A stretch of 63,986 bases of DNA, filler included, from Hausera hauseri (lineage: Eukaryota): NCBI GenBank assembly GCA_046269625.1. It is 11 parts of 11 records of this genome, joined end to end, with 100 filler letters (N's around TTAATTAATTAA, not from the genome) between each part and the next. Parts side by side here need not be neighbours in the genome. Positions count along the whole stretch, not along the records: positions 43,887 to 48,744 come from JBJURY010413367.1; 10 more parts are not named here. One strand, written 5' to 3'. The position numbers and the translations under genes were made by a program. The notes under the pieces were generated by a model, which was not told the origin of the DNA, did no database searches, and worked only from the letters and a program-made list of their open reading frames with translations. Shown piece by piece: positions 16,139 through 58,395 of the stretch; position 1 is the stretch's first letter; the number at the start of each line of letters is the position of its first letter.

Positions 16139-16240
16139 TTGCGTTTCGTTGGAATTTATAACAGAAAATTGAAGCGTATGGTCGTCTAGATCAGGCGTGC
16201 CTTCCTTATCTTCTGATTCTACATCAGTGTGAATTTTATC

Positions 16241-16340: not shown

Positions 16341-16652
16341 TAATTAACGACATACCGGCGACCAAGGCCCCACATCAAGTAATCGAGTATAGTTTGAAAG
16401 TCTTAAAATTTGGGCTATAAGTTCAAAAAGGTTTTAAAATAAAAATCTTTAGAGAACAAATATTGATAGATTAAGAGTAGAGAGAGAGAGAACAAAAATT
16501 TAGATAAACGTTCACTTTCCGAAACAAAAGTAAACTCAGTTAATACATATTTAACCGCCGTTGAACGATTCGATAAGTTAGAAATTCCTCTTGTGAAAAC
16601 TAAAGTTAAAAGAAACAATAAAGTAAATTTAGAGACTAATTACGCAAATAAT

Positions 16653-17716
16653 ATGGCAGCAGATAACCCACCAGTAGTGCAGAAGCTAGACATCTTCACT
16701 TTTGATTCTCTGAATCTGCCGGCATACGATGGAAATCCGGAGAGATTAAATGAATTTTTGAGAACTTATAAATTGCACCAGTCTTACTCCTAAAGCAAAG
16801 ATTAGATGTTTGTTTTTATATCTGAAGAATTTAGGCGCTGATGCTTACAGCGAGCTCACTACTGATGAGAAAAAATTTTGGTCCTCCCTGGTAGGAGCAT
16901 TAAACCGATAATTATTGCCAACAGTAACACCGCAACAGAAACTTATGGCATTTCAGAACAGGGTGCAACAGAAGGGTGAATCGGTAACCCAGTTTGCATT
17001 TTCATCGAAGAAACTCGCTAATAGTTATGTAAGAACATTGAGAATAGCCAATTTCGCCAGAGCCAAAACAGACGCGGAACGTGTGCCGCCAAAAAAGGCA
17101 ACCACTTCAGATTTGGATGTCATGATGACGACGCAATTATTTAATGGTATTTGGTCCCGAGATTTAGTGAAACAGTTGATTTTAGCCAGACCTGAGAATT
17201 TTGAAAGGACTTTGCAATTGGTCCAAGACTTAAAAATGGCACTTGATAGATATGCCAGACACAATGATAGGAATGATAGAAATAATGATCGAAATGATCG
17301 TAGCAATAGAAATTGGATTGATAATCGTGGGAGAGAGTAGACGATTTAACGATAATAGAAATAATAATATTGACTATAGGAATGGTCGAAACAGTACTTA
17401 CGCGAGTGATCGAAATACGAATAAGTTTAATTCCAATTCGGATAGAAATCGACTTAGCTATAAAAGTTCTAACTTTCAAAATCATCATGATGATAATCGA
17501 AATAATAATAATCGACGAAATGTAGATGGTGCACAAAGTTCGTCGAATCAATACTATAGAAGGCCAAATAGCGCTAAGTCACCTGAAAACGAAAACGGTC
17601 GTCAGAGAGTTGGCAGAAATGGGAATTTAGTTTGCATTACTTGCGGTAAGGAAGGACATATTGCAAGGTCATGTCCGAAACCGCGTAGCGTCTCCTTCAC
17701 CGAGCCTAATAAGTAG
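16653..17716 (+). pseudogene. gag: gag (capsid + N/R/D-rich linker + CCHC nucleocapsid), copy 1
   Basis: LPAYDGNP, MHR-like QQKGESVTQFA, zinc knuckle CITCGKEGHIARSC. Frameshifted. Confidence 0.9.
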
Positions 17717-17745
17717 AGTATGTTAAAGTCAACAAAAACTTAACA

Positions 17746-20700
17746 ATGAAATATGGCGTGTGTGGAGATACAGGTACTATTATTGACATACAGGATTTGC
17801 GAAAATTTCTAGATGCTCAGCCTGAGACTAATAATCCACAAATTCTTATGGCCAGGAAAGAATACGGCGATAAACTACGATTATTAGAGGTTTACCACGG
17901 TTTAGAAAAACCGGAAACTGAATATGAGTATGCCATAGTACCCAACCAAATTGATATAACGCGGAAAAAGAGTATTCCGACAATTAATAAAACGGTAGAG
18001 AAACCAGGAACTTCGACAGAAGTCGACTTAGATGCAGAACCTAAGTCTACGGTTGAAAAAGTAAATAAGATTACAGAAGATGATATAGCAGAAAAAGAAT
18101 TTATGGAACAATTAATACTTAGAATTACAAAAAACAGAGGCCGTAGCCCCTAACTTAAGCAAAAACGTAGAAGTCGTTCGCGATCGCAAGTAACTAAAGA
18201 AAAACCAGAAGAAGCAAAGGATACAAACATCGCTGTAAAAACCGACGTAGAGTCTAGTTTAAAAACAGCAGAAATAGGTCTATTTACACCCATCGAGGTA
18301 AAAGAATGTGCAAAGTCGATTAACAAAATCAACGAGATTTGCCTACTTCCCACTAGCAAGGCAGAAACAAGAAATATTGATAACTTTGATCCAAGAAAGT
18401 GGAAAGTCCGACGTTCATGGAAAAACGCCGATGAATTAAAGAAAATGAGAATTAGATGCCACAATCCAGAAACATTACAGCAAAATTTAGAAAGGCTTAA
18501 GCAGATTAGCGAACAAGTAGATATATCTGATAATGAGCAACAATTTGCTGAGAGGTTATATAAAAGTTTAAAATTATGTAGTGAAGGAAAACTCGAGGAA
18601 GCAATCGACTTAAAACAACCTGAAGTGGTGCCACCTGAAACGTCAATAAAATGGAAGCGTGAATTAGAATCGTGGATTAAAAATGGAGTCGAATTTTCGG
18701 AAGGGTGGAGCAAAAAAGAAGATAGTGTTGATGTAAAAGTCGCTAAAGCCCAGACGCTACTGTCTACCTTGGAGGAAAATCCAAATCTGAAGAGAATAGT
18801 CCGTAATTTAGAGCATATGATGGATGAAATTCATGTGCAATGATTAATCGGCTTAGAGAAAAACCGGTTAACCACCGAAGTGACGTTGATTTAGAGATAT
18901 TGGGTATAGACCCAGTAGACATTCCTCCTTTAATAGAGATAATAAAAATTGCCTTCGCCGTACCTAGATAATATATGAATTTAGAAATTCGTATTAAAAT
19001 GGAGAATGCAAAGAGATCACAAATTAGTATTTTGAGAAATCGAGTTATGCTTATGAATAACGAAGAAACCAAATATGTAATAAAGGCTTGTATAATAGAA
19101 TTCTACGAATATAAGGATGAGTTCAATTATGTCAGTCGGATTATGATTTTCATAGAAGATCCAGATGATGAATTAAAGGATGCTTATAAAATGTTATACA
19201 AGGCGATATTAGCAAAACCTATAATGGTTAACCAATTGAACGAATGGTCCGAATTAATATCGAGACTAAGCAAATTAGTGGGAAACCGTATCAAGGAATT
19301 TTCAGAAAGCGAACCTACGATAAAGAGACAATTAGAAGAAAGTGCACGTAACTTAGATACGATACAAGCGGAGATATATATCCGGACTCAATTCGACGCA
19401 TTACGGCTGTGATGTTTGACAAATAAATTCCAGCTTTAAACACGAAGGATATATTCAGAAATAAAATCCACGGATGATGAAAAACGATCTAATAAATAGG
19501 AAATCGAAATTGAATACCAATATATTTTGAACAAACGTCTAACAAATTAATCTGCTTAAAATCGAAAGGAAACCAAAGTTGTAACCAATATTTATTTAAT
19601 GTCTGTTATTGACAATAAACTAAAAGAATCAATTCTTAAAATATCTGCATATTAAAACAATCTCAATTTTTTGCACATATATAACATCATGTTACAATCT
19701 AGACAGTATAGTCACCAAATAGATAGTTCAGTAAATAAGGTCCATTTGAAAATCAAAAAAATAACCATAAAATTATATAAAAGTTTGTATACATACAAGC
19801 ATCTGAACAACAATATCGACACAAGAATGATACAGACTGAATAGCCGTCCCATACAAAATATTGTAAAAAATAAAAAAATAGGTTTCGAGTCAGTCGTCT
19901 ATTTTAATTTCTGTGTAAAAGACTGTAGCAAACGGAGGTGGGTTTTGAATCAATTAATCAAATGAGAGAATTCTAACGAAAAGAGTTGCTTCAGTTCACG
20001 CGATTCCACATCGTACGACTGCTGAATTTCGTTCAGAATATTTTCTTGTTTTGACAATTCTTTCGAATTCTTGTTGATATCCGATTCGATAATAATAATC
20101 AGACTGGTCCACCAGTCATCGTCGCCCACACAGTACTTATTTTTCATTCGAATAATTTTCATTAAACTTCCGGCATCTCTAATGATTGGATCCCTGGTCG
20201 ATTTTTGTGTTTGTAGATTTTGGATACATGTGGTACGAATAATTTGGTCAGTCAATGCAAATCCTCGTTCAAATGAATGAAAGAAAAGAGATGTTATTCT
20301 GATACTGACGGAATGGGTCATGATTGATGGATGAGGAGCGCGATAAATTAGTACTACTACCGGCTAGTGTGTGGAGAATACTAGACTCGCTTGTCGATGG
20401 TAATGATATCAATTTGTGTTTGACTTCCTGTTGTTTCTTTGGTAGACTTATTTTCAGGAGTATGTTGACGATCGTACAGCAGATCCATGGACGGATAATG
20501 GGTGGCATGTAAGACTGCAATATATCTTGTTGATAAGGGGGCTGATCGTTTTCATGACACTAAGTGATGTTGAACTGGTGATAAGTAAGGCAATGAGATT
20601 CGTCAATCCGTCTGTTGACACAGTAGGTTTGTATGCCGATAAATTCGTTACTGGCAAATCTCGAGGCAGAAGATCGGGGCCCGCCTAGGAACCCGACGTG

Positions 20701-22905
20701 GCGGCAACGGATGCCCGGCCGTGTCCAACCAAATGGGCCAGAGGGCGCCGGCCGCTGTGGGCACCACAACGGCAAATGAACTTTATAAAAAAGAAACAAG
20801 AAATGATGATATTGGAAGAAATATATAAAATTATCGAAGAGACAAACTTTACAGAAAAGCGGAATATGAGTTGCAATTTTTACCCAAGATTAAGAAACAT
20901 CCGACTAGAAGGAGTCCAACATTTAACAGCTAAATCTATTGACGAAATCTTAATTCAAAATTTCGAAACTTTGGATATTTGTTCAGAACATAGAGCCGCT
21001 GTAGAGGAAGCAATAAGATTCCTACATAAACCACAAAATATATGGCCGGAACAGATCAAAATTGCCATACCGGCTTAACAAAAATAAGGAATGACCACCA
21101 CCTCAGTTTTGAAGAAAGTAAGTTCGTGAAGAAACTGCTTGATGCGATAGACCCCGACTCAGAAATTCTTAATGAGATGTATGAGTTAACCCTACTATTA
21201 GTAGAAATGGCAGAAATTAGCTATGAGAAGATAAGACAATTGATGCCTCAAATACGACAGGCTGAAGAAACGTGCATTAGAACCAAACAAAGAGCAATAA
21301 GGTTAGACGAATTAGCAAAATAGCTCGAAATTTATCGGAACAAGTATGCTTTTACTGAGTCAGAAATTAACAGAAAGATAGAGTTTGTATAAAGATAACA
21401 AAGCGATGTAACTATATAGCTAAACGACTATAATCAAATACAACCGAGATTATAGGAAATTCGAGAGAACGTACAAAGATTGAATACAGCGCTAGTAGAC
21501 TATGGACTTCCAGAAGTTGGAAACGAAGCAGAATGGGATGCTTACTTAGATGCGATAAATGCCAAAAATCCGATAACTCCAGTACGTTTAAATGAACCAG
21601 AAATGTGTCCGCAGATTAGGAGATTTAATGTGGAGATGCTCCTGGACTCAGCTCTAACTGAAAAAGCTTTAGTCGAACTAACTAACGTAAATATTACTGA
21701 AAATAAGCTAAGGCAACTTATTCCGACCCTAACCAAATTATCTTGTGAGAATACAATATATAGCGCGGTCCCAAAACTACTGATAAGGAAATACGCTAAA
21801 ATCTTAAAAGCTAAGCCTGAGGTAACGATGAAAATAAAGATGGGCGAAAAAGAATGTGAGTTAACCACATATTCATATGTGAGGGATATAAGATAATGGT
21901 TAATGAACAATGGTGGAACAAATGAGTTAATTATAGATTTTATTTTAGAGGTAGAATATTAGACGACTTAGAACAGTTAATAGACATTGAAGTATCCCCG
22001 ACGAAACAAACCGAACAGTGGTAACAGTAGCTAATGAGCACACTAAATAAGAAGCCACACGTAAGGCTGAGACAAAACAATGTGTAGGACAAATCATGGG
22101 AGTCCGAGATGCCGCCATGTATTTTGAGTATCTGCAAACGGACAAAGACAAGAAACAGTACGACAAGAATTTAGTACCACTGAGTGAAATGACAACAACG
22201 GTTTCGAAACAGAAACACCCTGTAGGTAGGCCCAGGAATACGAGAAGATGTTGACTACAAAGGAGAATTGATTAGAGAATTGAGACAGATGTCAATTCCT
22301 ATCTTCAGTGCAGACAACGAAGAGTTAAGCGAGTTAATGAAAAATCTAATACGCATCGTAAATTATTCAAACTTCCATGGTGACGTATTGGACGAGAAAG
22401 AGAAAGCGATATTTAACGCACCTAAATGATGAGAAATTTTTGCTTTAATTTATCAAAGAGTAACCTAACCGATGAATCAGTGGTCGAGAGGATTATGGTG
22501 GAGAATACGATAGAAGAGCTAAGAAAAGTATTACTGTACTTAGCTATCAAAACAAATCCCTCTCAGGAGAATAAATTTAATATAGCTACAAGCTTAGCAA
22601 GGAAAGCGATTAGAAAACTGCCTCCAGAAATAAACTGGTTAAGATTATTCGATAAGGAAGAAGGTAAACGATCCAGCAATAGTAATCGACTCGAAGACAT
22701 GTTACGAAATCTCACAACAACGTAAAATAATAACCGTAGAAATGAATCAAACTGGTTAATCAACTTACTCACCTTGATGATGCTGGTGAAACAAATAGGT
22801 GTCATTACCGTCTATGATTGCGATAAATTTCAACTTGGACAGAAATACTCCTTAATGGATTTAGAGGTGTGCGAAGACGCCAGATCGCATAAACTAGAAA
22901 CAAAG
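17746..22905 (+). pseudogene. Region X (unknown helical protein, RS patch, ubiquitin-like domain ~21820-22030, AT-hook ~22213-22239) and the Env signal/N-terminus, copy 1
   Basis: Colinear homology with 36809-40385. Interrupted by the solo LTR at 19408-20768, stops and frameshifts. Confidence 0.8.
19408..20768. mobile_element. Solo LTR (1361 bp) of a different LTR retrotransposon
   Basis: Termini TGTGATG...CACCACA with a perfect 5-bp TSD ACGGC (19403-19407, 20769-20773). Absent from the homologous site in copy 2 (~38135). Confidence 0.88.
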
Positions 22906-24955
22906 GAGAAAGGGAACAGAAAGGGAACAAGACGATCACTTAGGCTCTTTGCTGAAGATGGAAGAAACGTACGGATTATTGCAGTAAACTACGGGGAAAA
23001 GGACAATGGCGGATATATTCCCATATAGGTTTCCGTTCGGGAAATAAATGGCGTAGAAGTTTACTCTAAGGTAATTAGTCCCCGGAAACCAGTCAGAGAA
23101 ACCTATGCAGAGGTTACCGGAATCAAAAAGAACACCTAGTTCGAGGCAAAGACATTAACTTGCTCAGAATGGAACTCATCATGACCTATATAGATGCATT
23201 CTCGCCGGATATAAGATTGAAGAAATTGTGGGAAAACTGGAAATACCACGTACCTACATAGCAGGAGCCAGAGAAATGAAAATCCATCCTACAGTTACGC
23301 AACAATTGGGAAGACTTATCGAAGAAAAAAATAGCTGTTTGCCCATGACCGTAGAAGGTCCATTTAAGTTTATGTTGGAAGCTATGAACAGCAAGCATAT
23401 AAAGATAAGCCGTCTTATGACCGCTAGTCAAAGAACGCAATACTTACGGTATATATCTCACCCTGAAGTGAGATCATGAGTGGACCCAAGAAAATCCAAA
23501 ACAGAAACTGCTCAGTCCCACCGACCCAGAAGGATTGAATAAACTTCACAGAAAGCACTTCCGGCCATATTCGCTCCACAGGATGGTCGAATCGTCGAAC
23601 CAAGGAAACTATAATATAACCATAAAGTGGTCTGGTGCAATAAAGAACACTCCAAGGCATGGATTGGAGTTGGACAGAGACGTCCTACCGAATAATACAA
23701 ATTCTTCAATGGGATTTAAGGTACCCGTAACTCCTGAGAAATCACTAAGAGGAATTAAAACGAAGAACAACTCCAAGAGGCAGCGAATCGAAAAATCCTC
23801 CCACAAAATAATCAACTTCAGTTTACGAATACCTATTCAAAATGAAGGATAAACGAGAGAAGACCGGAGAAGGAATGAAGAATTCCAGTAGAACTAAATT
23901 GAAGGCTACTGAAACAACCCAGAAAACAAAACCAAAACGCCCAGAAGAAAACAAAAGCTTCAATAAGATCGAACAAAAACAGATGGAACCCGGTACATCC
24001 TAAAGAGAAAGACCTAGGAAAAATTTACAAAACAAAATACCAGAAAAGGGAAGATCCCAGCCTAACTAACATATCACTAAAGTGAATTTACCGCATAAAG
24101 GGAAGTCCAATGAAGATGTCCGCTATGCTTTCTCAGACGACTGTACAAAATTACTAATCATGGCAGAATATTGCAGTCATCACAGAATCGAAGAGGCCGC
24201 ATTTTACGTAAAGGCCATAAAAGCCAGAGAGACCTTAGAAGACGCATATATGGGAGAATCCGAGAATCGGACGTTATTTAGCCCCCATATTCAATTCCAG
24301 GAGGATCAGGTAGTTATCCTTGCCGGTAGACGCCTACGTTAAAATAATGCTTAAGAAACAACACCAAAAGTATCAGTCAGAGTGTAAAATTCCCGATTTG
24401 GATAGAGAAATTGTCATAGATTGGACCTTAGTGCCCATGAATTACGACCACAGAAAGAGCTCAGTAGATTGGAAACAGAAGATAATCCATGCATATTTAT
24501 ATCAAGATTAAGACGGACTTGTCTTCGAGCCTATAGAAATCTTTCGGAAGGTAGACATAGATAGAAAAGGGGTTGAAGAAGAAGAAGACGTATGTACAGT
24601 CTGTGGAGATAACATCAAACAAGGATTTGTGAAATGGGACAATAAAGAATGTAGACACAAATACTGTTGTGGATGTTTAGAAGCATGGACATTGGAGAAT
24701 GGGAAAACAAATTGTCCAGTATGTAGAGCCGAAGCCGCCGGACTTAGGTATTATTCGGACTGCAACCACCATCGGACGGTTCAGATCCACCCTGCAACTG
24801 GATATAATATCGAAGATATACCTTCAGATAATACCGAAAACGGAAGAGATCTTCGGCAGAGAATGGAGCTTCTCAGATCGCCACGCATAGGCGTCACCTT
24901 TCTTGACGCAATGGGCACATTCGAGCATGCCGCTCAGGAAGAAGAAATGTTGTAA
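22906..24955 (+). pseudogene. 3' coding region ending in a C3HC4 RING finger (24593-24727), copy 1
   Basis: CTVC...CRHKYCCGC...W...CPVCR. Homologous to 43887-44606. Confidence 0.82.
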
Positions 24956-25410
24956 AAACAAGCCTAGTGAAACAGCTGAAGCTGTTGAGATGCAAATAAT
25001 CATATTGAAATAATTAAATATACATAAACGAACGATCGAAATAGTTAAATGTACCTAAAACGAATGGTAATGGTTTAGTAGCATATGTTAATGAAATAGA
25101 AATTGTAAATAATTTGTAGATATGGCAAAATAATTATGGTAAAGGCAAATAAAATAATAATAAATAAAATTAACCAGATGGACTGGGAAGAAGCGAAAGT
25201 ATAAATATAGAGAAGAAGTCAAAACAGAGACGAGACAAGAATCAGGAAAACTGCTTATCAAAATTTGGAAAGGAAACTGTTTATTTAATTCGTTGAATGA
25301 AATTGTTGATTGAATCGCCGTATCTTCTGAACATGACCCTGTGGTAAATTTGTTGTTTAATAAAGGTTTTTCTTTTGTTAAATTGTTAAATTTCTATATA
25401 GTTTTCCACC
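24948..25410 (+). repeat. 3' LTR (partial), copy 1
   Basis: PPT caggaagaagaaa then TGTTGTA; TATA-like 25200; aataaaggttt...atagttttcca is homologous to 45005-45053. Confidence 0.75.
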
Positions 25411-26639: not shown

Positions 26640-27412
26640 ATCAATAAATTTAAATTCTAACTGCACATATTATTGACATATTATTGACTTTTGCACACTT
26701 GCACACACGTTTTTGCACTGCACACCACATATCAAGGTGCATCTTGATGTGCTCTATCCACCTGCACTTGACCCCGATCAATTCCGTAAATCCTGCGCAG
26801 CACAACTGCAAAAGTGTGCAAAGTGAAAAAGTGCCATGGAAACCGTATCCACGTATACACCACACTGGAATTTTGCACTGAATGATCTACATCAAATGCT
26901 GCACCTGTCTGTATATGTGCCATATTGATATTATTGACTTAAAATTTATAGCGGAAAGGCCTATGTACCTTCACCCTTAGTTGACGTTTTATTAAAACCA
27001 ATCAATATATTCAAATTCTAACTGCACATTCACATTACCAGTCATGTGTGCTACCGATTGCACCGATCCCGAGTGATAATCATCAATATTAGAAATATCG
27101 GAAATCCATTATTATTGATTTTTGCACACTTGCACATGTGCTGCACACTTGCACTTGCACCAATCAATGCACCTCGATGTGCTTTATCGATTAGCCCTTT
27201 GTCGCGATCGATTCGATCAATACTGCACTGTGCAATTATCGATTTGTCAAAGTGCAAAAGTGCCCTTAGCAACGGTTCCTAGGGGCACCGTTGCCTAGCA
27301 CACTACCGATCGATAGTGCTCCGTGGGCAATATCGATTGGCACATGTACACAATCGATTTGTCGATTACCTTCACCCCCGGGGTGAGAGAGAAGGTACAT
27401 TTTCCTCCTACT
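26640..27412. repeat. Polinton/Maverick terminal repeat (TGCAC/ATCGAT-rich, internally duplicated)
   Basis: ~26810-27412 is homologous to ~60715-61298. Both stop abruptly at ...CCTACT(GCT), resembling the Polinton AGTAGT/ACTACT terminus. Confidence 0.7.
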
Positions 27413-30012: not shown

Positions 30013-32130
30013 TGTCCATAAAAAACATTTGATTTTTTTTGCCAAATCAAAAAAACAAATATTCAGTACCAATATGCCAATAACGACTTTAAAGGAAAAT
30101 TGAGGGTGCAGTTTATGTGTATTGCACATGTGTAATACACAACCCCGAGAATTGCCACAATACCATGTGGAGCTATTATGGTCACAAATTCAATAGGATC
30201 ATTTATTATATCTGCCCAGAATGTGAGGCTGTATGTGATGGCGAATACATACAGTTTTATAAAGATTACAAACATCATCTGACTGACTTCGCAAAGTCAA
30301 AGAAGATCACATTTAATAAACATAAGCCTGCAGTACAGCATGCAATACCACGGACTGCAGTACAGCCAGATGCAGGACTAAAACGCGCATCAGACACATC
30401 AGGCGTAGTGGCTCCAACAAAAAGCCAAAGACAGCGGCCAGTAGATGCTGTAGCATTAAAGAGGAAATGCCGCAAATATGTCATTGAGGCAACTGGTCAA
30501 ACAACCGTCAAGGAGTTCCTGGAGTACACAAAGAAAGAAAAAGAGGGGATTCTTCAGGACAATATGAAAGAACTCAAAGCCCTTAAAGTCAGTATAAAAC
30601 TGGAAGCCACATACGTCAATACTGATGGCGAAGAATCCAATAAGGCCTTCAAAACCAAAAATAGACCCATATTGGAAAACACCAATATAGCAGAATAGAT
30701 GCAAGGGGTGCACGAGAAGCCGATCCACTAGGCTGAGGAGAACCATGATAAGAAGAGCGGATGGACTCTGTCAATTATCAAGAGATTGCTTGTGTATGTG
30801 CACAAGTACTCTCCCATGGGTGGCAGTTCCTCTATACAGCTTCAGGAACGGATAGTAAGGAAAAAGGCATGCCATTTTATGTAAACTCGTATGGGATCAA
30901 AATCATGCAGCAGATCGAGTTTGGCTATATTAGGATCTGAAGCACAACTATGGCTTTTAATGTATTAAGTTCTCACCAGCCATAGATAAAGTAAAGTAGT
31001 TCGGTTGAATCAACAATATATCAATCAACATCATTGGGTTGGATGATGAAGGCAAATTCTATCCCCTGCTGATGTGCGACGTTGAATTAGAAAACCATAG
31101 GGATCTGCTTCTACTATATTATGGTGAAAAGAAACATTATGTTTGGATCAGTAACTTTGAACTTCTAGTCTGATTCCAAATTACGAAACATCATGGACAA
31201 ATAGAAATATGTAAACCATGTTTTTCATATTTAAGTGGTGATACAGAAGTGGATATGCTTGAAAAGCACAAAACATACTGCAACAACAATCACTGTATCA
31301 GGCCAAAATTTCCCAAGGATGACTATATTGAATTCACGGAGTTTAAGAAGAAGATCAGTGTCCCATTTTTTACCTGTTTGTGATTTTAAGGCTATTCTGA
31401 GTTTAGTTCAGAAATGTAATCCCAGTCCTCAACATTGCAGCACAAAGGCATACCAATATCATGAACTCTCATCGTATTGCATGTATGCCAAAGGACTGGA
31501 CAGTAAACCATTTCTATTCTGAGGTCCAGGTGCAACAGCACATTTCATAAAGCGACTTGAAGACATGGCTCATATGCTTGAAAACGTGTTTCAGCAGCAT
31601 AAGAATACAATAAGCATGTCCTGGAAACAAGAATAATGGCGCAAGGCAACAACATGTTACTTGTGTGACAAGCCCTTCACCAAGGATAATCATAAAGTCG
31701 GCGATAATTGCTTTTTTACAGGTGCATATAGGGGCGCAGCATGCAACAACTGCAATCTTTGCTGCAATACATGCACATATGTGCCATAATCTCAGTGACT
31801 ATGATTCCCATTTCATTGTCCGAGAATTAGGCAACATTGAAGGAAATATTGAGGTGATCCCCAACAGTGAGGAAAAGTATGTCACTTTCACTAAGCATGT
31901 TGATAAAATCCGACTTCGCTTCATAGACAGCTTTCGTTTTATGTCGTCTTCACTGGATGGTTTAGTGATGAATCTCTCTGCAGAAAAATTCAAGGAGTAG
32001 ATGCGATTCTTTTGCACTACATTTGACCTAAACAAGAGGAAAGGCGTGTTTCCCTATGACTATATAACTTCATGGGAAACACTGGATGAGACCTCATTGC
32101 CGGCCAAGAAGGACTTTTACAATATCCTCT
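30013..32130 (+). pseudogene. polB: Protein-primed DNA polymerase B, copy B (N-terminal half)
   Basis: N-terminal Cys/His module, AFKTKN, KSGWTL, VCDFKA, HNLSDYDSHF, FIDSFRFM, RKGVFPYDY. Truncated by the contig end. Confidence 0.9.
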
Positions 32131-36808: not shown

Positions 36809-39800
36809 TTACTGAGGATGATGCAGCAGAAAAAAATTTATAGAGCCATTAATACTTAAAATTACGAAAAACAGAGGCCGTAGCCCTTCATTAAAAACGA
36901 AACGTAAAAGCCGTTCACACTCCAAAGTAACCAGAGAGAAAATTGAAGAAACGAAAAACCCGAACGTCGTTGTAGGAGGTGACACGGACCATAGTTTGAA
37001 TACACCAGAAGTTGTTTCATACACCTGTTGGAGTAACGGAGTCTATAGAGGCACTTAATGAAATTAACGAGGTCTGCCCACTTCCCATTAATGAGGAAGA
37101 GACGGCAAACAATTATGATTTCGATTCAAAGAAGTGGAAAATCCGACGTTCATGTAAAAACGCCGATGAAGTAAAGAAAATGCAAATTAATTGTTTGGAG
37201 CTCGAAATATTACAGAGAAATTTAGAGAAGCTCAAGCAGATTAGCGAACAAGTCGATATAACCAAAAAAGAACAACAATTCGCCGAGATGTTATATAAAA
37301 GTTTGAAACTGCGTAGCGAAGGAAAGTTTGCGGAACCAATCGACTTTGAACAACCCGAAGAGGTATCAACCGAAACGTCGTTATAATGGAAGCAGGAATT
37401 AAAATCATGGATTAAAAGCGGTGTAGAGTTTTCAGAAGGATGGAGTAAAAATAAAGATATAGTCGACGTAAAGGTCACTAAGGCTCAGACGCTATTGTCT
37501 ACTTTAGAGAAAAACCCGAAATCGAAGAGAATGGTTCGAAACTTAGAACGTATAATGGACAAAATTCGGTACGCAATGATTAAACGGCTTAGGGCAAAAC
37601 CGGTTAACCATCGCAGTAAAGTCGATTTAGAAATATTGGGTATAGACCCGTTAGATATTCCTCCCTTGACGGAGGTGATAAAGATCGCATTTGCTAGACC
37701 CAAACAATACATAAACCTGGAAAACCGACTTATGATAGAAAACGAAAAGCGAGCACAGATTTATAGCTTGAGGAACCGAATCATGTCCCCAAATCATGAG
37801 GAGACCCAATATATAGTAAAGGCTTGTATCGTAGAATTGGACGAGTACAAGGACGAGTTCAGTTATGTCGGCCGAATTATGAATTTCCTAAGAGGACCAG
37901 ACGATGAGTTAGAAGATGCATATAAAATTCTAGATAAGGCTATAATGGCGAAACCGATAATCGCAAATCAACTGTCGGAATGGTCCGAATTAATAATGCG
38001 ATTAACCAAATTAGTAGAAGATCGGGAGAAGGAATTTCCGCAAAGCAAGCCAGTGGTAAAGAAGCAACTAGAAGAAAGTGCACATGATTTAGGCACAATG
38101 CGAATAGAAATAGACATCCGTACTCAATTCGAAGCGCTACGACGACTAAAATTTATTGAAAAGGAACGAGAAGCGTTGACGATGGGAGAAATCTACAAAC
38201 TGATCGAAGAGACGAATTTTACGGAAAAACGGAATATGATTTACGATGTAAACTCAAGGTTAAGGGTTGTTTGACTCGAAGGAGTACAATACTTAACAGG
38301 AAAACCAATCGACGAAATTTCTGTACAAGACATTGAAATCTTGGACATTTGTCCAGGGCATCGAGATACGTTAACGGACGCAATAAAGTTTTTGCACAAA
38401 CCACAAGAATGGATGGCCGCATCAGACCAGAATTTCCATACCAAGTTGACAAAAATAGTAGACGATCCACGTTTTAGTTTTCAAGAACACAAATTCGTAA
38501 AGAAACTGTCGGATGCAATGGACCCTGATTTAAAGGTTATAAATGAGATGTATGAGTTAGTCTATTTATTGGTGGAAATGGCAGAAATCAGTGATGAGCA
38601 AATGAGGAAATTGATGCGCAAGATACAGAAAATAGAAGAAACATGTATCAAGACGAAACAAAGAGCGACAAAGTTAGATGAAATAACAAAGGAGCTTGAA
38701 GTCTATCGAAACAAATATGCTTTCACCGAATCCGAGGTTAAGAATAAACGAGAATTTGTACAAAGATGGCAAAATTATGTGATTCTTGAATTGACAGATT
38801 ATCACTAGAAGGGGCTGATCAACCCGAACGAATTGGGCGAATTACTGAAAATGATTCAGTATTCCTGTGGAATCGGAGTAGGTTTCCTGACTACGCAGAT
38901 AAAAGAAATACAACCAATATTGGAAGAAATTAGGAAAAATGTACAGAGATCAAAAACAATTGGGATAGACGCTGGACTTCCCGAGGTCAGTAACAAGCCG
39001 GAATGGGATGCATACTTCGACGCAATGCTGACCGAAAAGCCTATGACTCCAGTACAATTGAATGAGATACAATCATGTCCGCAAGTCAGGAGATTCAATG
39101 TGGAAATGCTTTTGGATTCAGCGCTAACTGAAAAAGATTTAATCAAACTAATTAACGTAAACATTACCGACAGTAAATTAAGACAACTAATTCCGACATT
39201 AACTAAATTATCTACCGAAAACATGATTTATAGTACGGTGCCGAAACTTTTAATAAGGAAGTACGCAAAAATCTTGAGGGCTAAACCTGAGGTGACGATA
39301 AAAGTAATGGTATCATCCGAATGGATGGACGAAAAAGAATGCGAGTTGACTACATATTCCTACGTAAAGGACGTAAGAGAATGGCTAATAAACAATGGTG
39401 GAACAAACGAGTTAAACTACAGATTTTATTTTAGAGGTAGAATACTCGACGACCTAGAACAACTAATAGACGTCGGTATTATTCCTGACGAAACAAATCG
39501 GATAGTGGTAGTGATAGCTAACAAACAGACAAAGGAAGAAGCTACACGTAAAGCCAAAACAGAAGAATGTGTAGGACAAATCATGGGAGTTCGAGACGCT
39601 GCACTGTATTTTGAGTATTTACAAACGGACGAGGATAAGGAACAATACGACATAAATTTAGTACCACTGAGTGAAACAACCACTAAGGGTCCAAGGCCGA
39701 AACGCCCAGTAGGTAGGCCTAGAAAAGTGCGAGAAGTGGATTACAACGGAGAATTAATTAGAGAATTGAGACAGATGTCGATTCCGACTCTTAGTCCAGA

Positions 39801-40233: not shown

Positions 40234-42020
40234 TGGCTAATTAGATTGCTTACCTTAATGATACTAACAAAGCATATAAGCGCGGTAACCGTTTATGATT
40301 TCGATAAGTTTAAATTAGGACAGAGATATTCCTTATGGACCTGGAAGTATGCGAGGACGCCAGACCGCACAAATTGGAAACAAGAGAGAAAAGTTACTTC
40401 CTGTATCAACATCAAGAATTGATATCGTTAGACGGAATGGAGTGCATGCTGAGACGATCGCGTAGTATCTTCCACTGTGGACTGGTACACGGACATTCCT
40501 CCATAATCAAGCCAACTACTCCGCTAATTCCAATGAATTTAGAACGCCAACACTGCAAGCAAGCTAAAGAGACTGGAAGAGTACAGTGGGATAGTATGCA
40601 ATTAGAAATGCAACCAGGTAGTGGCCGGAAGACTAGATATGCATAGCGTATATTGTCACGGAGAGGAATACGACACCGGAAAAGGATTACAATCGAATGT
40701 GGTAGTCGTAGACTTTTATGAATCAGAGATGCGGTCACAGAAAGTAATGTTCCATAATGTCACCAAGTTATACACGGAGAATCAAAAATGCCACTTACAA
40801 GATGGAACCTGTGCTTTTAGAAGTTTGGTTATAATATGGGAACCTCCCTCTGGAAGAAGCTGTAACTTTATCAAAATTAAGGAGTTAAAGTTTAATGAAA
40901 CTACCGGAAAACGATATGTAGACCAATCGGAGGCTAATTCAAGAACACGCGAAGATGTATCGGAACACCCTACACCTACTATATTAATCTCGGACCCGCA
41001 TGGACTAAAATTTATAAAAAAGGAGATGATGACTCGTTGCGATGTAATAATGTTCGCCACAAACTATGAGGCGTTTTTTTGTAGCCGAAATGGAAACAAA
41101 CTCAAAAACCTACAAATTGGAAACGCAGGATGTTCGGATTGAGGATTACCTGAAAAATAGAGACGATTAATTCTACTATAAAGGACAAGTCGGAATAACG
41201 GAATTATATCATAAAATGATAATGAATGACTGCAAATTGGATACAGAAATCATGAGAACTAAAATGTCTCTTATATATGCAAACCCGGAATTGGCTTTTC
41301 CAATAATTCCCATGAGAGAAGGAATTTTCGGTCGAGTTACGGGCGAAGTGTTACTAACCTATGAATGTGAAAAGTGAAAAGTTCCCATCAGTGTAGAAGA
41401 AAAGCGTTGTATCCAGGAACGTCCTGTTATTTATCAGAATACTCCAAGATTAGCTACACCATTGACAAGAGTGATGTTGGATAACGCGACACAACCAACT
41501 ATACTCAAGGATTGTAAAACAAGCTTAGGAGAGCCAATATTTAGACGCAGTGAAACCGACTGGGTTAGTTTACCTAATGGAGATATTACTGCCGCCCCTA
41601 ACAAGCTAACAGGGACGAATCTCGCGAACGAAATTACAAACGATAAATTTCAAGACACCTCATCGAAAGGTATATATAGGCCGAAGGAAATTGAGGCTTT
41701 CAGACAATTCCTTTCCTTTCCACGACAACGTACGCATGACCTAAATCGAGCTATGGCGTCTGTAGTAGACGACACACGATATCAGGCTAAATGGGAATCA
41801 GTACTTGGCGTAAACCACTATCAGAGAGTAACAACAGAAATACTCTACAAAATTTAGGGGAGATTTTTGATCTTCGGACAGGCCGCATCTGGATTTTTAG
41901 CGATATATTTCTTGATACAAATGATTAAGGCAGTCATCCAAGCCGTAATAAACGGATAGGGAATATTTATACTAACCGGATTTTCACGTAAAATTCTGAC
42001 TGCAATCATAACGCCCTTTG
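40234..42020 (+). pseudogene. env: Env: chuvirus (Jingchuvirales)-type glycoprotein with internal signal peptide and C-terminal hydrophobic segments
   Basis: WLIRLLTLMILTKHISA|VTVYD(C/F); IFHCGLVHGHS; YCHG..NVVV; CHLQDGTC..IIWEP..C; LYHKMIMNDC; GEVLLTYEC; C..ERPVIY; GIYRPKEI..SFP; TM FLIFGQAASGFLAIYFLIQMI..G*GIFILTGFS. This motif order matches chuvirus G proteins. Confidence 0.85.
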
Positions 42021-42694
42021 GAAAATTTTTAAAAGCATACGAAGAGAGTAGATGGAAATCGGACGTAGAACGCCATGTCGGTTACTATAATCGTAAACGT
42101 AAAGGGAGATCAATATTCCTTCGCAAGCGGAAGTCTACAAAATCTATTAGAAGAAGGAATAAGTCAGATGATGACGAGCCAAAGGGAGGAGAAGCGCTTT
42201 CAGGAATAAATCGACATAATATGTACTCGGTCGTTAAAGCGCCATTGCCCGTGTTACCTCCTACCGCCCCATTCTACTACGATTGCGATAAACAGTTCAT
42301 GAGCTCATATCAGACAGAAATTTATAAAATGACAATTAATGTAGAAGACCCTTATGAAGGAACGAAACGATACAAAATTTTACGGAAAATGTGTTACCCC
42401 CAATCCGCGGATGATCCTAAGATGATATACTTACCAAGAAAACCTAAGAATATTGAAACTAGATCGACAGTTTGGGACAACCCAAGATTAAAAACCTTCC
42501 AACATACTGAACTACATACTAACAATCGGGAACCGCTATTTAGTACTCATGAAATAAAAGAATTGCACGTAGAAAATAACGAATTATATCTAAACGGAAA
42601 ATTAAGACAGTTATCGGAAAACATAATATCCGCCCCAGAAATACGAATAAACGGACACAAAATATCAGTAACTAAACGTACGAAAATAGCATAA

Positions 42695-43120
42695 AATTGT
42701 TTCGGAACAGTGATCGAAGGAAGGCCGTTCGCCAAAATCACTATTGAGGATTGGGAAGTTTATGCGTTAATTGATACGGGTTCTGAAATGTCTTACATCA
42801 AAAATGATTCAATACCTCAAACGCTAAGAGGACAGTTTTATCCGCCGTCTACAAAAGATTCAGGCAATACGGGAGCTTTTGGCCAGATGTCAAAACCAAT
42901 GTTTAAATGGAATCCAGAAGTCCAATTAGTTGGACAAATATTTCGGCATGAATTTGCAATCATGGAACAATTAACTGGTGATGTCGTTCTAGGATGCGAT
43001 TTATTGAAAAGGCTACTAAATATAGCAATCGACTTACAAACAGGAAAGCTGATTGAGATTAGACCCCAAAAGGGCGTGAAGAACGCTAAGGATAGAAAAT
43101 TTTGGGAAATGTGAATACCA
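42695..43120 (+). pseudogene. Retropepsin-like aspartic protease
   Basis: YALIDTGSEMSYI ... VVLGCDLL. Confidence 0.92.
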
Positions 43121-43886: not shown

Positions 43887-44606
43887 TATGTGTGGGAGAA
43901 CGTTGGACTCGGAACCTATCTCACTTCACTATTTTGTTCAAAAAGGACAGGGAAAATAGTGGTTCCCGTGAACAAGCAAATCCAAGTATTATTATAGAAA
44001 CAATATCAAAGGTATAAGATAGAAGGAAATATTCTTGATTTGGACAAAGATGTCATGACAGACTGGACCTTAATCCAAGTGGATTGCGATCCACGAAAGA
44101 GCTCAATTAACCCCAAACAAAAAGTGATTCATGGCTACTTATATCAGGATAAAGATGGTCTTGTATTCGAGCCGATTGAATTAATCATCCAAGTGGATCT
44201 GGATAGGGACGATTGGAACAAGGAAGATAGCGAATGCCCCGTATGTGAGACAAATTTGAAACAAGGGTATGCGGTTCTGGACAACAAAAACTGTCGTCAT
44301 AAATAGTGTTGAGATTGTCTGGAGAAGTGGACACACGACAATGGGAAAACAACCTGTCCAGTATGCAGGGCAGAAGCCACCGAGTTGAAATACTATTCCA
44401 ACGGGAGCTATACCCGTATCGTCCGGATTAAACCTTATCACAGTTACAGCCAGGAGACGAATCCCCTAATACGTCGAGAACATCAGAACTCACCATCGGA
44501 TTTAGATGAAAGGATGAATCGGCTAAGACGACCTGAAACGTTTGGCTCCACCTCTTCTGACGCAATAGGCCCTTCCGAGGATGCCGCTCAGGGAGGAGAA
44601 ATGTAG
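43887..44606 (+). pseudogene. 3' coding region with a C3HC4 RING finger (44234-44369), copy 3
   Basis: CPVC...CRHK*C*DC...W...CPVCR. The ORF ends AAQGGEM*, overlapping the PPT and LTR start. Confidence 0.82.
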
Positions 44607-45310
44607 CGTATTGAGCAACAGTTGTTGAAGTAATTGTAGCAGTTGTTAAAAGTAATAAAAAATTTAGTGTTGCCGAAAATAATAAAAATTGGTTGAAGCA
44701 ATAAAATGAATGAGCTAAAACTATTGCAATATACAAAGATTGCAAATATTTAGAAAATCCAATATGTCTAACATATTGTATTTATGTATCGAGAAAAGCA
44801 GAGATAATAGAATTATATTATTTTTATTACCGAAACCAAGCCTATATAAACGATATCAGAAATGAAAAAGTCAGAACAAAATTTGCGACTTAGGATCGCA
44901 GTGAACCGAATCGAATTGAACTCTCCTTATTCCAAAAGACTTACGAATTCTATTCTATATTGACAATACCTGTTCTTTGAAGCTATTTGATATCCGTGTG
45001 ATTAAATAAAAAGGTGATTTAGATATTTGTTGTTAAACTCACATAGTTTTCCATCGTCCTTTAAGGACGATTTGCACTACACTAAGGGTAAAATCTTACT
45101 TAAATTCTAGAGCTAGGTTGAGAGAATCTAACTTAAGACACGCAGTTTTGTGCACACAGTACCTGCATTGACACCTAAACTAAATCTAAAAATCTTAATT
45201 CACAAGCAGACTAATCGAGACCGAATAGTCCTAACCTGCTGATACAGAAATAAAAACTCGGATTAATATTGTTGTAGTGGGAGAAGGTAAGGGCCACCCC
45301 AACTATAACA
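44602..45310 (+). repeat. Complete LTR (709 bp)
   Basis: PPT cagggaggagaaa (44589-44601); TGT start, ...TATAACA end; TATA tatataaa 44843-44850; aataaa 45005-45010; followed by the PBS. Confidence 0.85.
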
Positions 45311-45314
45311 TACT

Positions 45315-45331
45315 TGGCGACCCTAGCAGGA
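45315..45331 (+). promoter_or_regulatory. Primer binding site (probably tRNA-Arg type)
   Basis: TGGCGACCCTAGCAGGA lies 4 nt after the LTR end and is complementary to a tRNA 3' end ...TCCTG....GGTCGCCA. Confidence 0.75.
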
Positions 45332-45687
45332 CAGTTTGTGCCTCGCTAGACTTGACTCTTGAGAAACCAATTAACGACATACCGGCGAATAGCGCCATTT
45401 ACATCAAGTAATTGATTTAATAGGAATCGAAGTTTAAAATTTGGGATTATAAGTTGATAGAAGGGATTAACTGGATTGAATTGAGAGCAAACATTGATAG
45501 GCTCAAATTGAAACAAAACTTGTTAGTAAACGGTCAAAAGGAACTAAATCAAAGAGAGACAAGAAATAGACTTTATAATGAAGATAAGATAATAGATAAG
45601 CACTATCTGTCCGATACCGAATTAAACTCTGCTAGAGAATTTAAAGTGCCTCCTAGAACTAAGATAGATAAAACGAATAAAATTAAA

Positions 45688-46720
45688 ATGGCACCAGATA
45701 ATCCAGCGATAGCTCAGAAACTTGATATATTCACGTTCGACTCGTTAAACTTACCCGCATACGACGGAAACCCAGATGGGTCAAATGATTTCCTAAGAAC
45801 TTACAAATTGCATGCAGAAGGTGCCGGTCTAGCAACCGAAGTCATGATAAAACGATTATCATTATATCTGAAAAACGTGGCTGCAGATGCCTATAGTGAA
45901 TTGACTAATGAGAAGAAATTATGGTCCTCTGTAGTAGGAGCTCTGAATCGTAAATTATTGTCAACGGTCACGCCACAACAGAAGCTAATGGCCTTCCAGA
46001 ACAAAATACAACAAAAGGGTGAATCGGTTACGCAATTTGCATTAGCACTAAAAAAGCTTGCTAATAGTTACGTGAGTACGCTAAGGATAGCTAATGCGGC
46101 AAAGGCAAAGACAAACGAAGAACGTGAAGCGGCAGAAAAGGCGAGCCCGCCAGATTTAGATGTCATGATGACTACACAGTTAATAAACGGTATATGGTCT
46201 AGAGATTTAGTTAAACAATTAATTTTGGCTCGACCAGGCAACTTCGAGACTGCATTACAGTTAGCGCAAAACTTAGAAATGGCATTAGACAGATATGCCA
46301 AACAGAATGAAAGGTATGACCGAAATAATGATCGTGACAATCGAGACAGAAAAAAGAAACAATAGAAGATTCAACGATAGTAATAAGGATCGAGGTTATG
46401 AGAATAGAGCTTAAAACACCTTCAATCGCAACACGAGATATGATAATAGGAACTTTATTGATAACCGAAATACGTACCAAACAGGTTATAATCCGAATAG
46501 AAATCAAAATAATGACCGAAGTAACAAGAATCGTTATATAGAAAATCGAAGTTTTAAAAATAGAAAAAATGGAAATGATAAGCAGGCTCAGCTGACTCAA
46601 AGCAAAACGATGGGTCGACCCAAAGCACAGTAAATGAAGACGGAAGACAAAGGATCGGTCGAGACGGAAACCTGATTTGTTATTCATGTGGTAAAGAAGG
46701 TCACATAGCTAGATCATGCC
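45688..46720 (+). pseudogene. gag: gag, copy 3
   Basis: MAPDNPAIAQKLDIFTFDSLNLPAYDGNP, QQKGESVTQFA, CYSCGKEGHIARSC. Confidence 0.9.
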
Positions 46721-48744
46721 CTAATCCACGGAGCGTATCATTTGCGGAGACTAATAAAGCTAGCATGATAAAAGATAATTTGGAATGAATCTATGGGAAA
46801 TGATGTGACATGGGCATGATTATCGAAATGCAAGACTTACGAAGATATGTAAGAAATATGGGCGAATCTAATAATCCACAAGTAATCAAGGCTAGGAAGG
46901 AGTATGAAGAAAATTTGCATCAAATGGAAGTTTATCATGGATTAAGAGAACCAAAACAGAATACGAAAAGGCTATAGCGCCCAAAAATACTAATATGGCC
47001 AGAAAAAAAAACCTAAATCCAGTGGCAAAGCCAACTACGCCTCCAAGCGTAGATTTGGATGTAGGTACTGAGGTTGCGCCTAAAGATAAGGACAAAGTAA
47101 CAGATGAGGTTGAAAGCGAATTCATTGGCCCACTGATACTTAAGATAACGAAAAGTAGAGGTAGAAGCCCCTCTCTTAGGAGAAGGTCGAGAACTCGTTC
47201 ACGATCACCTATCAAAAAGGACATAGAAAAAGAGGAAGATTTCACTATCACTCTAAGAGATGAAACAGAGTTAGACACTCCGAAAATAACGAACATTCTG
47301 AACATTGATTAAATAAATGAAATATGTCCGTTATTATCTACTGAGGAGGAGTCAAAAGAGGAAGAGTCTATTAAATTTGCAAAGATCAGAAAATATTGGA
47401 AAAATGCGAATGAGCTAACAGAAATAAGAGACACTTCGAACGATCTCGGAAGACTGACTGAGAGCTTACAAAAACTGCAGCAAATGAGCAAGCAGTTGGA
47501 CATTTCAGGAAAAGAACAACAATCCATAGAAAAGTTGTATAAGAAGTTTAAAACCGGCCTCCAGAAAGGAGAAGAAAGCATACCATTCGAACTGCAAGAA
47601 GTACCGCAAGATTGATAAAATATTGGCAAAAGAAACTGGAATTGTGGACAAGGAGTGAGATCGAATTTACAAAAATATGGTGGAATAAAAACGAACCGTT
47701 TCTGGATCAGGTTAATCAAGCGCAAGGACTGTTAGACACACTTAAGAACAAACCAAAACTAAAACGCGTAAGGCGTAATTTAGAAGGATTGATGCATGAG
47801 ATAGAAGAAGCGATAATTTCTTATCTCCATAATAAGCCAGTATACGAACTGACTAATACTGACCTAGAGATACTGAGTATAGACCAAACCGATATTTTCT
47901 TCCTATTGGAAATGTGCAGCTTCATAAGGCATAAACCTCAGAAATATTCAGATTTAAAAATACGTATCGGAAGAGAAAACGAAATACGAGACAAAATTAA
48001 CGACTTAAGGATCGGCGTAGTCTACTCTGAAAACATAGAAGTAAAAAGAATAATACGCGCTTATCTGCTTGAATTAGATGAATATAAGGAAGAATTAAAC
48101 TATATGGAACAAATCGTAAAATTTGTACGAGGACCCGATCATGAACTAAAAGAAGCTTTTGAGGCTTTAGACAAAACTATATACGCTAAGCCAGAAACAT
48201 CTAGACAATTGGAGAAGTGGATAGACTTGCTACCTTCTATAGTTGAAGTGATTAACGAACGGCTAAGGGAGTTCAATGCGGTTGAACCAATAATGAAACA
48301 TCAATTGGAGGAGATGCTACTATATATCGGCACAATGGAAGATGAAGCGAAATTGCGAATCAAATTCGAATCATTTCGAGAACTTGAATTTATGAACCAG
48401 GAGCAAGATCTGACATCACTAACGGAAATGTATACTATGATAGAAGAAGAAGACTTCTGAAGAAAAAGAAATAAACTAAGTAATCTCCAGCGGAGCTTAG
48501 TAACCATCCGTTAAAGGAAATCTCTGTACGGGAGATAGAAACATTAGAAGTGTGTAATGACCACCGGATTGCTCTCGCGCAGATACTGCAGTATATACAG
48601 AATTCAGTTGAATGGTCACCGGGCTTTGACCTACATTGCCACTCCGAATTAACAGAAATTAAAAATGATCCGCAACTGACAAGCGATGAAGCCAAGTTTG
48701 TAAGTAGGCTGATGCACGCAATAGATCCTGACGCCGAAGTGTTA
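46721..48744 (+). pseudogene. Region X N-terminal part, copy 3 (divergent subfamily)
   Basis: In frame with the CCHC knuckle. Homologous to 17746+ and 36809+ (LILKITKSRGRSP, VRRNLEGLM, AIDPDAEVL). Confidence 0.8.
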
Positions 48745-57365: not shown

Positions 57366-58395
57366 TCAATCTGCGATGCAAATATCCAACTCGTTGTAGT
57401 GCATCTGTGCCACTTGCCGAGATATTGTTTATTCGAACTTTTGCCGCGTGAGCGTAGAATTTCCTGAATGCGATACATCAGGTTTTTCCCGTAATACTTC
57501 CAGTTCCTGTTCGTGAAATTTGCCACGTATTTCGTCACCATTTTCATCTAAAACATAAATAACAGGTGTTTGATTGCTAAAATTCGGAAAACCTCATCGC
57601 TCCAGTTCTGACTGAAATTCTTAATAAATGGTGTCGTACGCAGCTTTGAAATACGTACATAATCACCGATTTTATACTTGGGACGTTTAATTAGTCGTCG
57701 TCGTCGTTGTGTTAGGTTTTGGTAAAGCCACATGTCCAAATCATCGATTACATCCACCGGCCGTAATCCATTGATGCCACGATGTGTTGAATGATTGTAT
57801 GCATAAATAATATCCGGCAGTACATCTACCCAGCGTTTGTTTCCTTGCTTCGTAAAGAATTTGTTTAGGCGACCGCGCAATGTTCGGTTAAATCGTTCAA
57901 CGAGTGCAGCCTTGTATTGGGAAAACACGGAGTAGTAATTTACGCCGAACCGTTTCAAGACCGCTGCAACGTGGGCGTTGTAGAATTCCGTAACCAAATC
58001 CGTTTGTAAATGCTTCGGTTGTTGTTGTTGTTGTTGTATGAGTGTCTGGACAGAGTCGGCAATCTCTTTATCGGATTTAGATTTCACAGCAATTGCACGT
58101 GCAAAACGACTAAACACATCAACGCACGTCAGCACGCACGGATACCCATCGTTGATGCTGGCGTACGGAATCATTTCCACCAGATCCATTTGCCATACAT
58201 TATTTACACCGGCAGCACGGTATGCACTAGTTGGAAACTGCCTTCTTACCGGTTTGTTTAGGCTGTATTCTAACTGTTTCCCGAACCAACTTTGGTCTGT
58301 TGCCTACTCTGTTTGACAGTCTTTGCCAGTTTGTCGACGCCAATACACCCGACAAGATGACGCGGATCAAACCACACGTCGCACGTCGTTGTTGT
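57362..58395 (-). pseudogene. Polinton/Maverick retroviral-like integrase with a chromodomain-like end
   Basis: WQMDLVEM, LTCVDVFSR, LQTDLVTEF, VERFNRTLR, YKIGDYVRI..NWSDEVF, KQYLGKW. Frameshifted N-terminus (WFDPRH..GVDKL). Confidence 0.92.

Follow-up and report, generated by a model that had tools for sequence, protein, structure and literature searches.

The analysed window, a stretch of 63,986 nucleotides (filler included) of Hausera hauseri DNA, consists of 11 short contigs with N-linker-N spacers between them, and position 43887 is therefore the start of a contig and not that of a gene. One LTR family is common to three of the contigs, with an identity of ~70-75% over the aligned parts. 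Two copies of an LTR element (A and B) carry a RING finger at their 3' end, and a third contig holds a sister copy. Their features are as follows, P0005 being an intact relative found by profile search.

16341..22911, plus strand: 5' part of copy A, with gag, a long polyprotein, a ubiquitin-like (UBL-like) segment and the first env codons
22933..23455, plus strand: DEDDh (DnaQ-type) exonuclease fold of copy A, assigned via P0005, with which it shares 39/65 and 32/92 residues; it is split over two frames
23478..24147, plus strand: linker of copy A, mostly unconserved, its second half at shuffle level
24148..24592, plus strand: conserved domain that precedes the RING in copy A, sharing 16/35 and 47/99 residues with P0005
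24593..24727, plus strand: C3HC4 RING of copy A, reading frame open across the domain
24936..25410, plus strand: polypurine tract (PPT, 24936-24947) and LTR start (24948) of copy A, the LTR being cut by the contig end
36809..43786, plus strand: sister-copy contig, with polyprotein, UBL-like segment, env and aspartic protease, in that order
about 39343-39495, plus strand: UBL-like segment of the sister copy, sub-threshold
40314-41854, plus strand: Monjiviricetes-type fusion env of the sister copy (PF24664, 2/3 matches above cut-off)
42695-43111, plus strand: aspartic protease of the sister copy, 3' of env
43887..44234, plus strand: conserved domain that precedes the RING in copy B, truncated where the contig starts, with a stop at 43995 (dN/dS 0.17)
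44235..44369, plus strand: C3HC4 RING of copy B, 8 ligands kept, stops 44304 and 44310 at non-ligand positions
44370..44606, plus strand: post-RING beta-hairpin of copy B, then a poorly constrained tail that ends on the PPT and LTR start
44590..44601, plus strand: PPT of copy B
44602..45310, plus strand: LTR of copy B (TG...CA, 709 bp), its ends inferred from the PPT and the primer-binding site
45315..45331, plus strand: primer-binding site (PBS), probably for tRNA-Arg
45424..48744, plus strand: gag, which includes a CCHC knuckle, and the first part of the long polyprotein, next after the LTR at 44602..45310

On the contig at 43887-48744 the order is thus RING, purine tract, LTR, PBS and gag with a CCHC knuckle. 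The PBS shows 2 mismatches in 12 to the 3' end of Arg-CCG as given in the available part of supplement 1 of PMC13524379. This contig presents a single LTR flanked on both sides by internal sequence, the 3' end on one side and the PBS and gag on the other; the layout corresponds to tandem copies with a common LTR, to a one-LTR circle or to a collapsed assembly. The window contains no second full LTR for 44602..45310, and contig depth peaks at both LTR ends. The U3 parts of the LTRs at 44602-45310 and 24948-25410 are barely alignable, unlike the PPT, both ends of the LTR and the region of the PBS, all of which are conserved.

The contig of copy A (16341-25410) starts directly 3' of the PBS and runs parallel to the sister contig until ~22911, after which 2 kb of other sequence lead to the RING, the purine tract and the LTR. 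As the gag-side sequence and the RING end share this contig, copy A links gag and RING physically. Its env, pol and accessory N-terminus are deleted, with an in-frame jump at ~22911 to the nuclease fold, and copy A could possibly belong to a deleted, non-autonomous subfamily. At the joint (~22911-22933) the env start is in frame with the start of the nuclease fold, as expected by chance in about 1 of 3 cases. A splice origin of the joint at 22911 was considered and rejected, no good donor being visible. Copy A also differs from the sister contig by a 1.37-kb insertion (19405-20779), which lacks a terminal inverted repeat and in which two scanned ORFs gave no Pfam match. Between env and protease, positions 41960-42691 encode 244 aa with a basic patch and no family match.

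Elsewhere in the window, positions 27400-32130 contain two diverged tandem copies, 68% identical, of a decayed gene without Pfam match, which by eye we take to look like a Polinton-type DNA polymerase B. Integrase cores (PF00665) were found on the minus strand at 15026-16240 and 57551-58303; they belong to other LTR families and show no link to the RING element. The contig at 48845-54507, 5.6 kb long, is an A-rich microsatellite with a period of 4 bases.

The PPT, LTR, PBS, gag knuckle and a class III env before the protease are all present in the carrier (GAG-ENV-POL type), which by its domain layout resembles a Burro-like gag-env-protease LTR element, the RT-IN of the family lying outside the window. 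With Burro/GYPSM1, the planarian giant gypsy-like elements, it shares a Gag with CCHC knuckles, a long coiled region, a mononegavirus-type env between gag and protease and, by sub-threshold matches, a putative Ubi/SUMO-like segment, but has one Gag knuckle where Burro has two or three (PMC6431247, available part). The available Burro text names AIR1, Smc, MATH, BIR, ankyrin, BCL2-like and dUTPase-like motifs and no 3' DEDDh-RING gene (PMC6431247); the word 'RING' that forms part of the AIR1 label there probably reflects a match to the Gag knuckles. No Pfam or PDB match to the BCL2-like, MATH, BIR, ankyrin or dUTPase-like motifs was obtained in the decayed segments scanned. GAG-ENV-POL errantiviruses with an HSV/gB-type ENV have been described from flatworms, bryozoans and nematodes (PMC13524379, available part), and the element is like them in its gag-env-pol order and class III type of fusogen. 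This gene order makes a flatworm the probable host. However, 'RING', 'ubiquitin' and 'zinc finger' have 0 occurrences in the available main text of that paper, which describes no such accessory gene (PMC13524379).

A profile of both RING-bearing copies was searched against 1.84 billion protein representatives and gave 193 matches, the best 150 of which were examined. The whole query was matched by P0005 (870 aa, 241 bits), encoded on one 16,242-bp ENA contig and 46% identical to copy A and 50% to copy B. The next best of these 150 matches reached 62 bits, and the other 149 resemble P0005 around the RING only. At its C-terminus P0005 has those residues which, in the window, are encoded by the PPT and the first LTR codons, so that P0005 very likely sits at the same site in a related element.

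The motif of the original prediction was confirmed, in the form C-x2-C-x15-C-x-H-x2-C-x2-C-x3-W-x8-CPxCR, at 24593-24727 and 44235-44369; the start of the second copy had been set at 44234, one base early. The acidic patch ahead of the first Cys is likewise there in both copies. PF00097 scored 28.2 and 27.5 bits in the two copies (cut-off 21), and a relaxed RING-HC pattern was found twice when all six frames of the window were scanned, and never in 100 shuffles. All eight zinc ligands were kept, with C3HC4 order and spacing, in 3/3 sequences (copies A, B and P0005). Both copies are pseudogenes, a point that the original prediction did not make: copy A is interrupted by stops at 24311 and 24509, and its frame changes several times farther 5', while copy B has stops at 43995, 44304 and 44310, the last two within the RING. 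All eight ligand codons survive in both copies, four of them differing, synonymously only. The three sequences further agree in the Trp of the helix, in the Pro within CPxC and in the Arg that follows the last Cys, residues that active RING E3 ligases use in E2 binding.

Between copies A and B, dN/dS was 0.11 over the RING (43 codons) and 0.17 over the upstream domain (113 codons), and the post-RING tail was the least constrained (0.72); these ratios are rough, because dS is near saturation (2.4). The bootstrap intervals of pN/pS for the RING (0.16-0.53) and the upstream domain (0.33-0.56) both exclude 1, and that of the tail includes it. Judging from these substitution patterns, selection maintained both the RING and the domain ahead of it during the divergence of the element lineages. 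Contigs of two public runs covered every one of the 30 bins, the RING among them, and numbered 52 and 9 at place 44335; they span the RING in many variants, and the region is therefore multi-copy.

An AlphaFold model of copy A, made from an alignment that included 64 foreign RINGs, had a pLDDT of 87-95 over the RING and the following two-strand hairpin. With this model as the query, the best named matches in a viral structure library were alphaherpesvirus IE61/ICP0 and baculovirus IE2/PE38 (E 9e-6 to 5e-4), and the PDB matches were RING1B and other generic RING E3s (Z up to 6.9), all these fold matches resting on a small common domain. Foldseek gave 0 PDB matches at E 0.001 or better. In a quick-search tree of 145 of 152 RING sequences (the 7 without the pattern were left out), the three element RINGs formed one clade (SH-aLRT 97), but the comparison with other RINGs proposed earlier resolved no sister among the 142 others. 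Ten other RING matches, eight of them from a loose group around the element clade, are mostly unnamed proteins.

A chance origin of the RING motif, or its passive capture as a scrap of some host gene, is extremely unlikely on these data and already largely refuted. The motif was absent from the 100 shuffles, its position and the end of its frame are common to three lineages that are 46-50% identical, the low dN/dS of the RING was reached at near-saturated dS, the three RINGs group in one well-supported clade, and the best 150 of the 193 profile matches include no host parent.

As predicted, the frame ends on the PPT and LTR start, with AAQEEEML in copy A (stop 24953-24955) and AAQGGEM in copy B (stop 44604-44606). 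The terminal codons span the purine tracts at 24936-24947 and 44590-44601, which are followed by the TG of the LTR at 24948 and 44602, and the frame thus reaches one or two codons into the LTR. An ORF ending at the PPT/LTR boundary is a common layout in retroelements, and the run into the LTR may be mainly a by-product of packing that needs no special function.

P0005 starts at a Met, its first 54 residues being of low complexity and followed by a second Met. It comprises, in order, an N-terminal part, the DEDDh fold, a linker, the conserved upstream domain and the RING with its hairpin. Copy A is colinear with it from residue 233 to the C-terminus, with conserved blocks at residues 233-297, 315-407, 416-465, 604-740 and 744-823. 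Pfam found only the RING in P0005 (PF00097 above cut-off) and no integrase. The upstream domain (residues 598-742) had no usable Atlas match, and the model of the RING region was of low confidence there. Residues 55-232, a part outside the window, form a beta-rich N-terminal domain with the look of an AlkB/cupin barrel by eye; this resemblance had no support in Pfam, NCBIfam or PDB.

Whether the RING is fused to integrase had been left open by the original prediction. Judging from the one intact relative, it is probably the last domain of a separate accessory protein with a pseudonuclease, and not fused to integrase. The region might instead be a C-terminal extension of Pol, the RING travelling with integrase and targeting or modifying the chromatin at the insertion site; Burro-type elements do put many domains in one polyprotein (PMC6431247, available part), and the joint would be invisible here, since the window copies lack RT-IN. 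This is nevertheless very unlikely, as P0005 is a stand-alone protein of 870 aa with a low-complexity start and no integrase match, and no longer protein with the region occurs among the best 150 of the 193 matches from the 1.84 billion representatives. A word-indexed search of the RING region against longer proteins gave 0 of 201 candidates, but this type of search is insensitive, since it missed P0005. With P0005 as the query against proteins of similar length only P0005 itself was returned, and the polyprotein against proteins of 1996-5000 aa gave 0/4497. Locus scans gave 0/503 pattern matches in viral contigs, 0/159 and 0/327 in metagenome contigs, and none in phages.

The DEDDh fold of the accessory protein covers residues 233-415 of P0005, ~330 residues upstream of the RING; its counterpart in copy A had escaped the original prediction. 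This region matched DnaQ (E=1e-4) and the PolC exonuclease (E=4e-4) in the PDB, and its Atlas features were RNase_T (0.93) and also those of arenavirus nucleoprotein; dnaQ-family models gave E values of 0.004-0.011, below cut-off, and no curated cut-off was reached. A single-sequence model of the whole protein had a pLDDT of 31. In copy A, the first half of the fold alone gave no DnaQ match, and ankyrin and SUMO matches at its start were rejected as short chance matches. Copy A and P0005 are still 39/65 identical in the fold, in contrast to the second half of the linker, where their similarity is no higher than in shuffles. P0005 has other residues in place of the two acids of motif I and the one of motif II, the corresponding positions of copy A are likewise non-acidic, and the alignments of P0005 end ahead of motif III (His, Asp). 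With the three tested catalytic acids lost, the domain is likely to be catalytically dead, a conclusion made less certain by the unaligned motif III and by the active-site switch reported for Maelstrom (PMC2628886, available part).

Such a presumably dead enzyme fold, conserved despite the loss of its catalytic acids, would suit a RING that serves as a non-catalytic zinc scaffold or as an E2 decoy, in a protein that absorbs host factors or chaperones the element RNA. This function is held to be improbable, because none of the three sequences has lost the Trp, the Pro or the terminal Arg that are usual in active RING E3s, and the best named viral structural matches are annotated E3s. The element-encoded E3 ligase of the original prediction stands in so far as the RING is element-borne, under purifying selection and endowed with the E3 hallmarks of fold, ligands and Trp/Pro/Arg, whereas its ligase activity is predicted from these hallmarks.

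The UBL domain, also put forward originally, is plausible by alignment but sub-threshold in Pfam (E=0.11, 12.8 bits, cut-off 25.4) and in the PDB (E=0.28). No functional tie was seen that would aim this segment and the RING jointly at ubiquitination, as had been suggested, and the UBL-like segment lies in a different protein. These data bear on a possible action of the RING as an active E3 on the element's own proteins, in the budding or turnover of Gag/Env, or as a partner of the UBL-like segment. A fusion env and the UBL-like segment are both present in the element, and retrovirus budding is ubiquitin-dependent. Retroviruses bud via host ligases, however, the UBL-like segment is sub-threshold and encoded apart from the RING, and a pseudonuclease of nucleic-acid type is no obvious adaptor for Gag/Env, so that we regard this action as unlikely.

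The viral proteins that came out as the best named structural matches, ICP0/IE61 and IE2/PE38, have a C3HC4 RING followed by a beta-hairpin, as in the element, and function as viral RING E3s. By analogy, the element RING likely works like a viral E3 of the ICP0 kind, a likeness of predicted activity from which family membership does not follow. Outside the RING there is no similarity between ICP0/IE2-type proteins and the element protein, whose RING is C-terminal, and they share no SUMO-interaction motif (SIM). Descent from an ICP0-type RING has no support in the tree, in which no ICP0 sequence was knowingly included. SIMs are a conserved feature of ICP0-like E3s, and the comparison is weakened by the lack of one common to copies A, B and P0005. 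A SUMO-targeted ligase was rejected on the same ground, a simple pattern scan of the C-terminal region having found no SIM common to the three sequences.

In PML, the domain order is opposite to that of the accessory protein of the element. With its PXL pseudo-exonuclease, PML resembles the accessory protein as predicted here by combining a RING and a dead, nucleic-acid-binding DEDDh-type fold in one protein, but PML is a vertebrate host restriction factor and, with no homology shown, at most an analogy (PMC13659232 and PMC10123124, available parts).

Among LTR elements, the bdelloid Juno and Vesta also carry an additional 3' ORF that codes for a DEDD-family exonuclease. Their ORF3 is DEDDy/RNase D-like, has intact invariant residues, is active and lacks a RING (0 occurrences in the available text), whereas the window element has a DnaQ/RNase T-like fold without the acids and fused to a RING (PMC5408684). 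Osvaldo and Isis-like gypsy elements likewise encode a RING, but according to the available part of PMC3630058 theirs is part of Gag instead of belonging to a 3' accessory gene, and no nuclease fold goes with it. A RING in Gag (PMC3630058) and active DEDDy third ORFs (PMC5408684) are thus already in print in the parts available. No paper on a 3' pseudonuclease-RING gene was found in the open-licence literature, and the available parts of PMC8532177 and PMC13238120 held no further information on the RING.

We give an even chance to the interpretation that the RING, as the last domain of a 3' accessory gene, is a likely E3 that the probable pseudonuclease would steer to host silencing or restriction proteins. 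The accessory gene would very probably be separate from pol, a link to pol by frameshift or read-through being much less probable. It would probably be expressed from a spliced RNA, the usual way for third ORFs of LTR elements (PMC5408684, available part). Its RING is predicted, with good probability, to bind a host E2 and to transfer ubiquitin. The nuclease fold is predicted to be rather likely to bind RNA or single-stranded DNA without cutting it, for which PML, a RING protein with a nucleic-acid-binding pseudo-exonuclease, offers a precedent (PMC13659232, available part). By analogy with herpesvirus ICP0, the targets may be host defence proteins on the element RNA, cDNA or chromatin, for which the chances seem equally balanced. 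Ubiquitination of the host proteins gathered on the element nucleic acid would then lift silencing. Neither of the two window copies is itself still functional.

For Burro, interference with host ubiquitination has been proposed, in an available text without a clear ligase (PMC6431247). With a compact RING under selection and an intact natural example, this proposal can be put directly to the test, and the pseudonuclease joined to the RING suggests a means of substrate choice. More tentatively, and with a likelihood well short of even, this env-carrying, high-copy family might encode an anti-silencing E3, with the dead DEDDh domain as its nucleic-acid-guided receptor and piRNA or chromatin silencing as its target. 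If so, the protein would be the equivalent of ICP0 in a transposon and would mirror the host PML in its architecture. The mechanism is known for few of the counter-defence proteins that transposons encode. Should its target be a silencing factor, the element would be following an approach known to date mainly from large DNA viruses.
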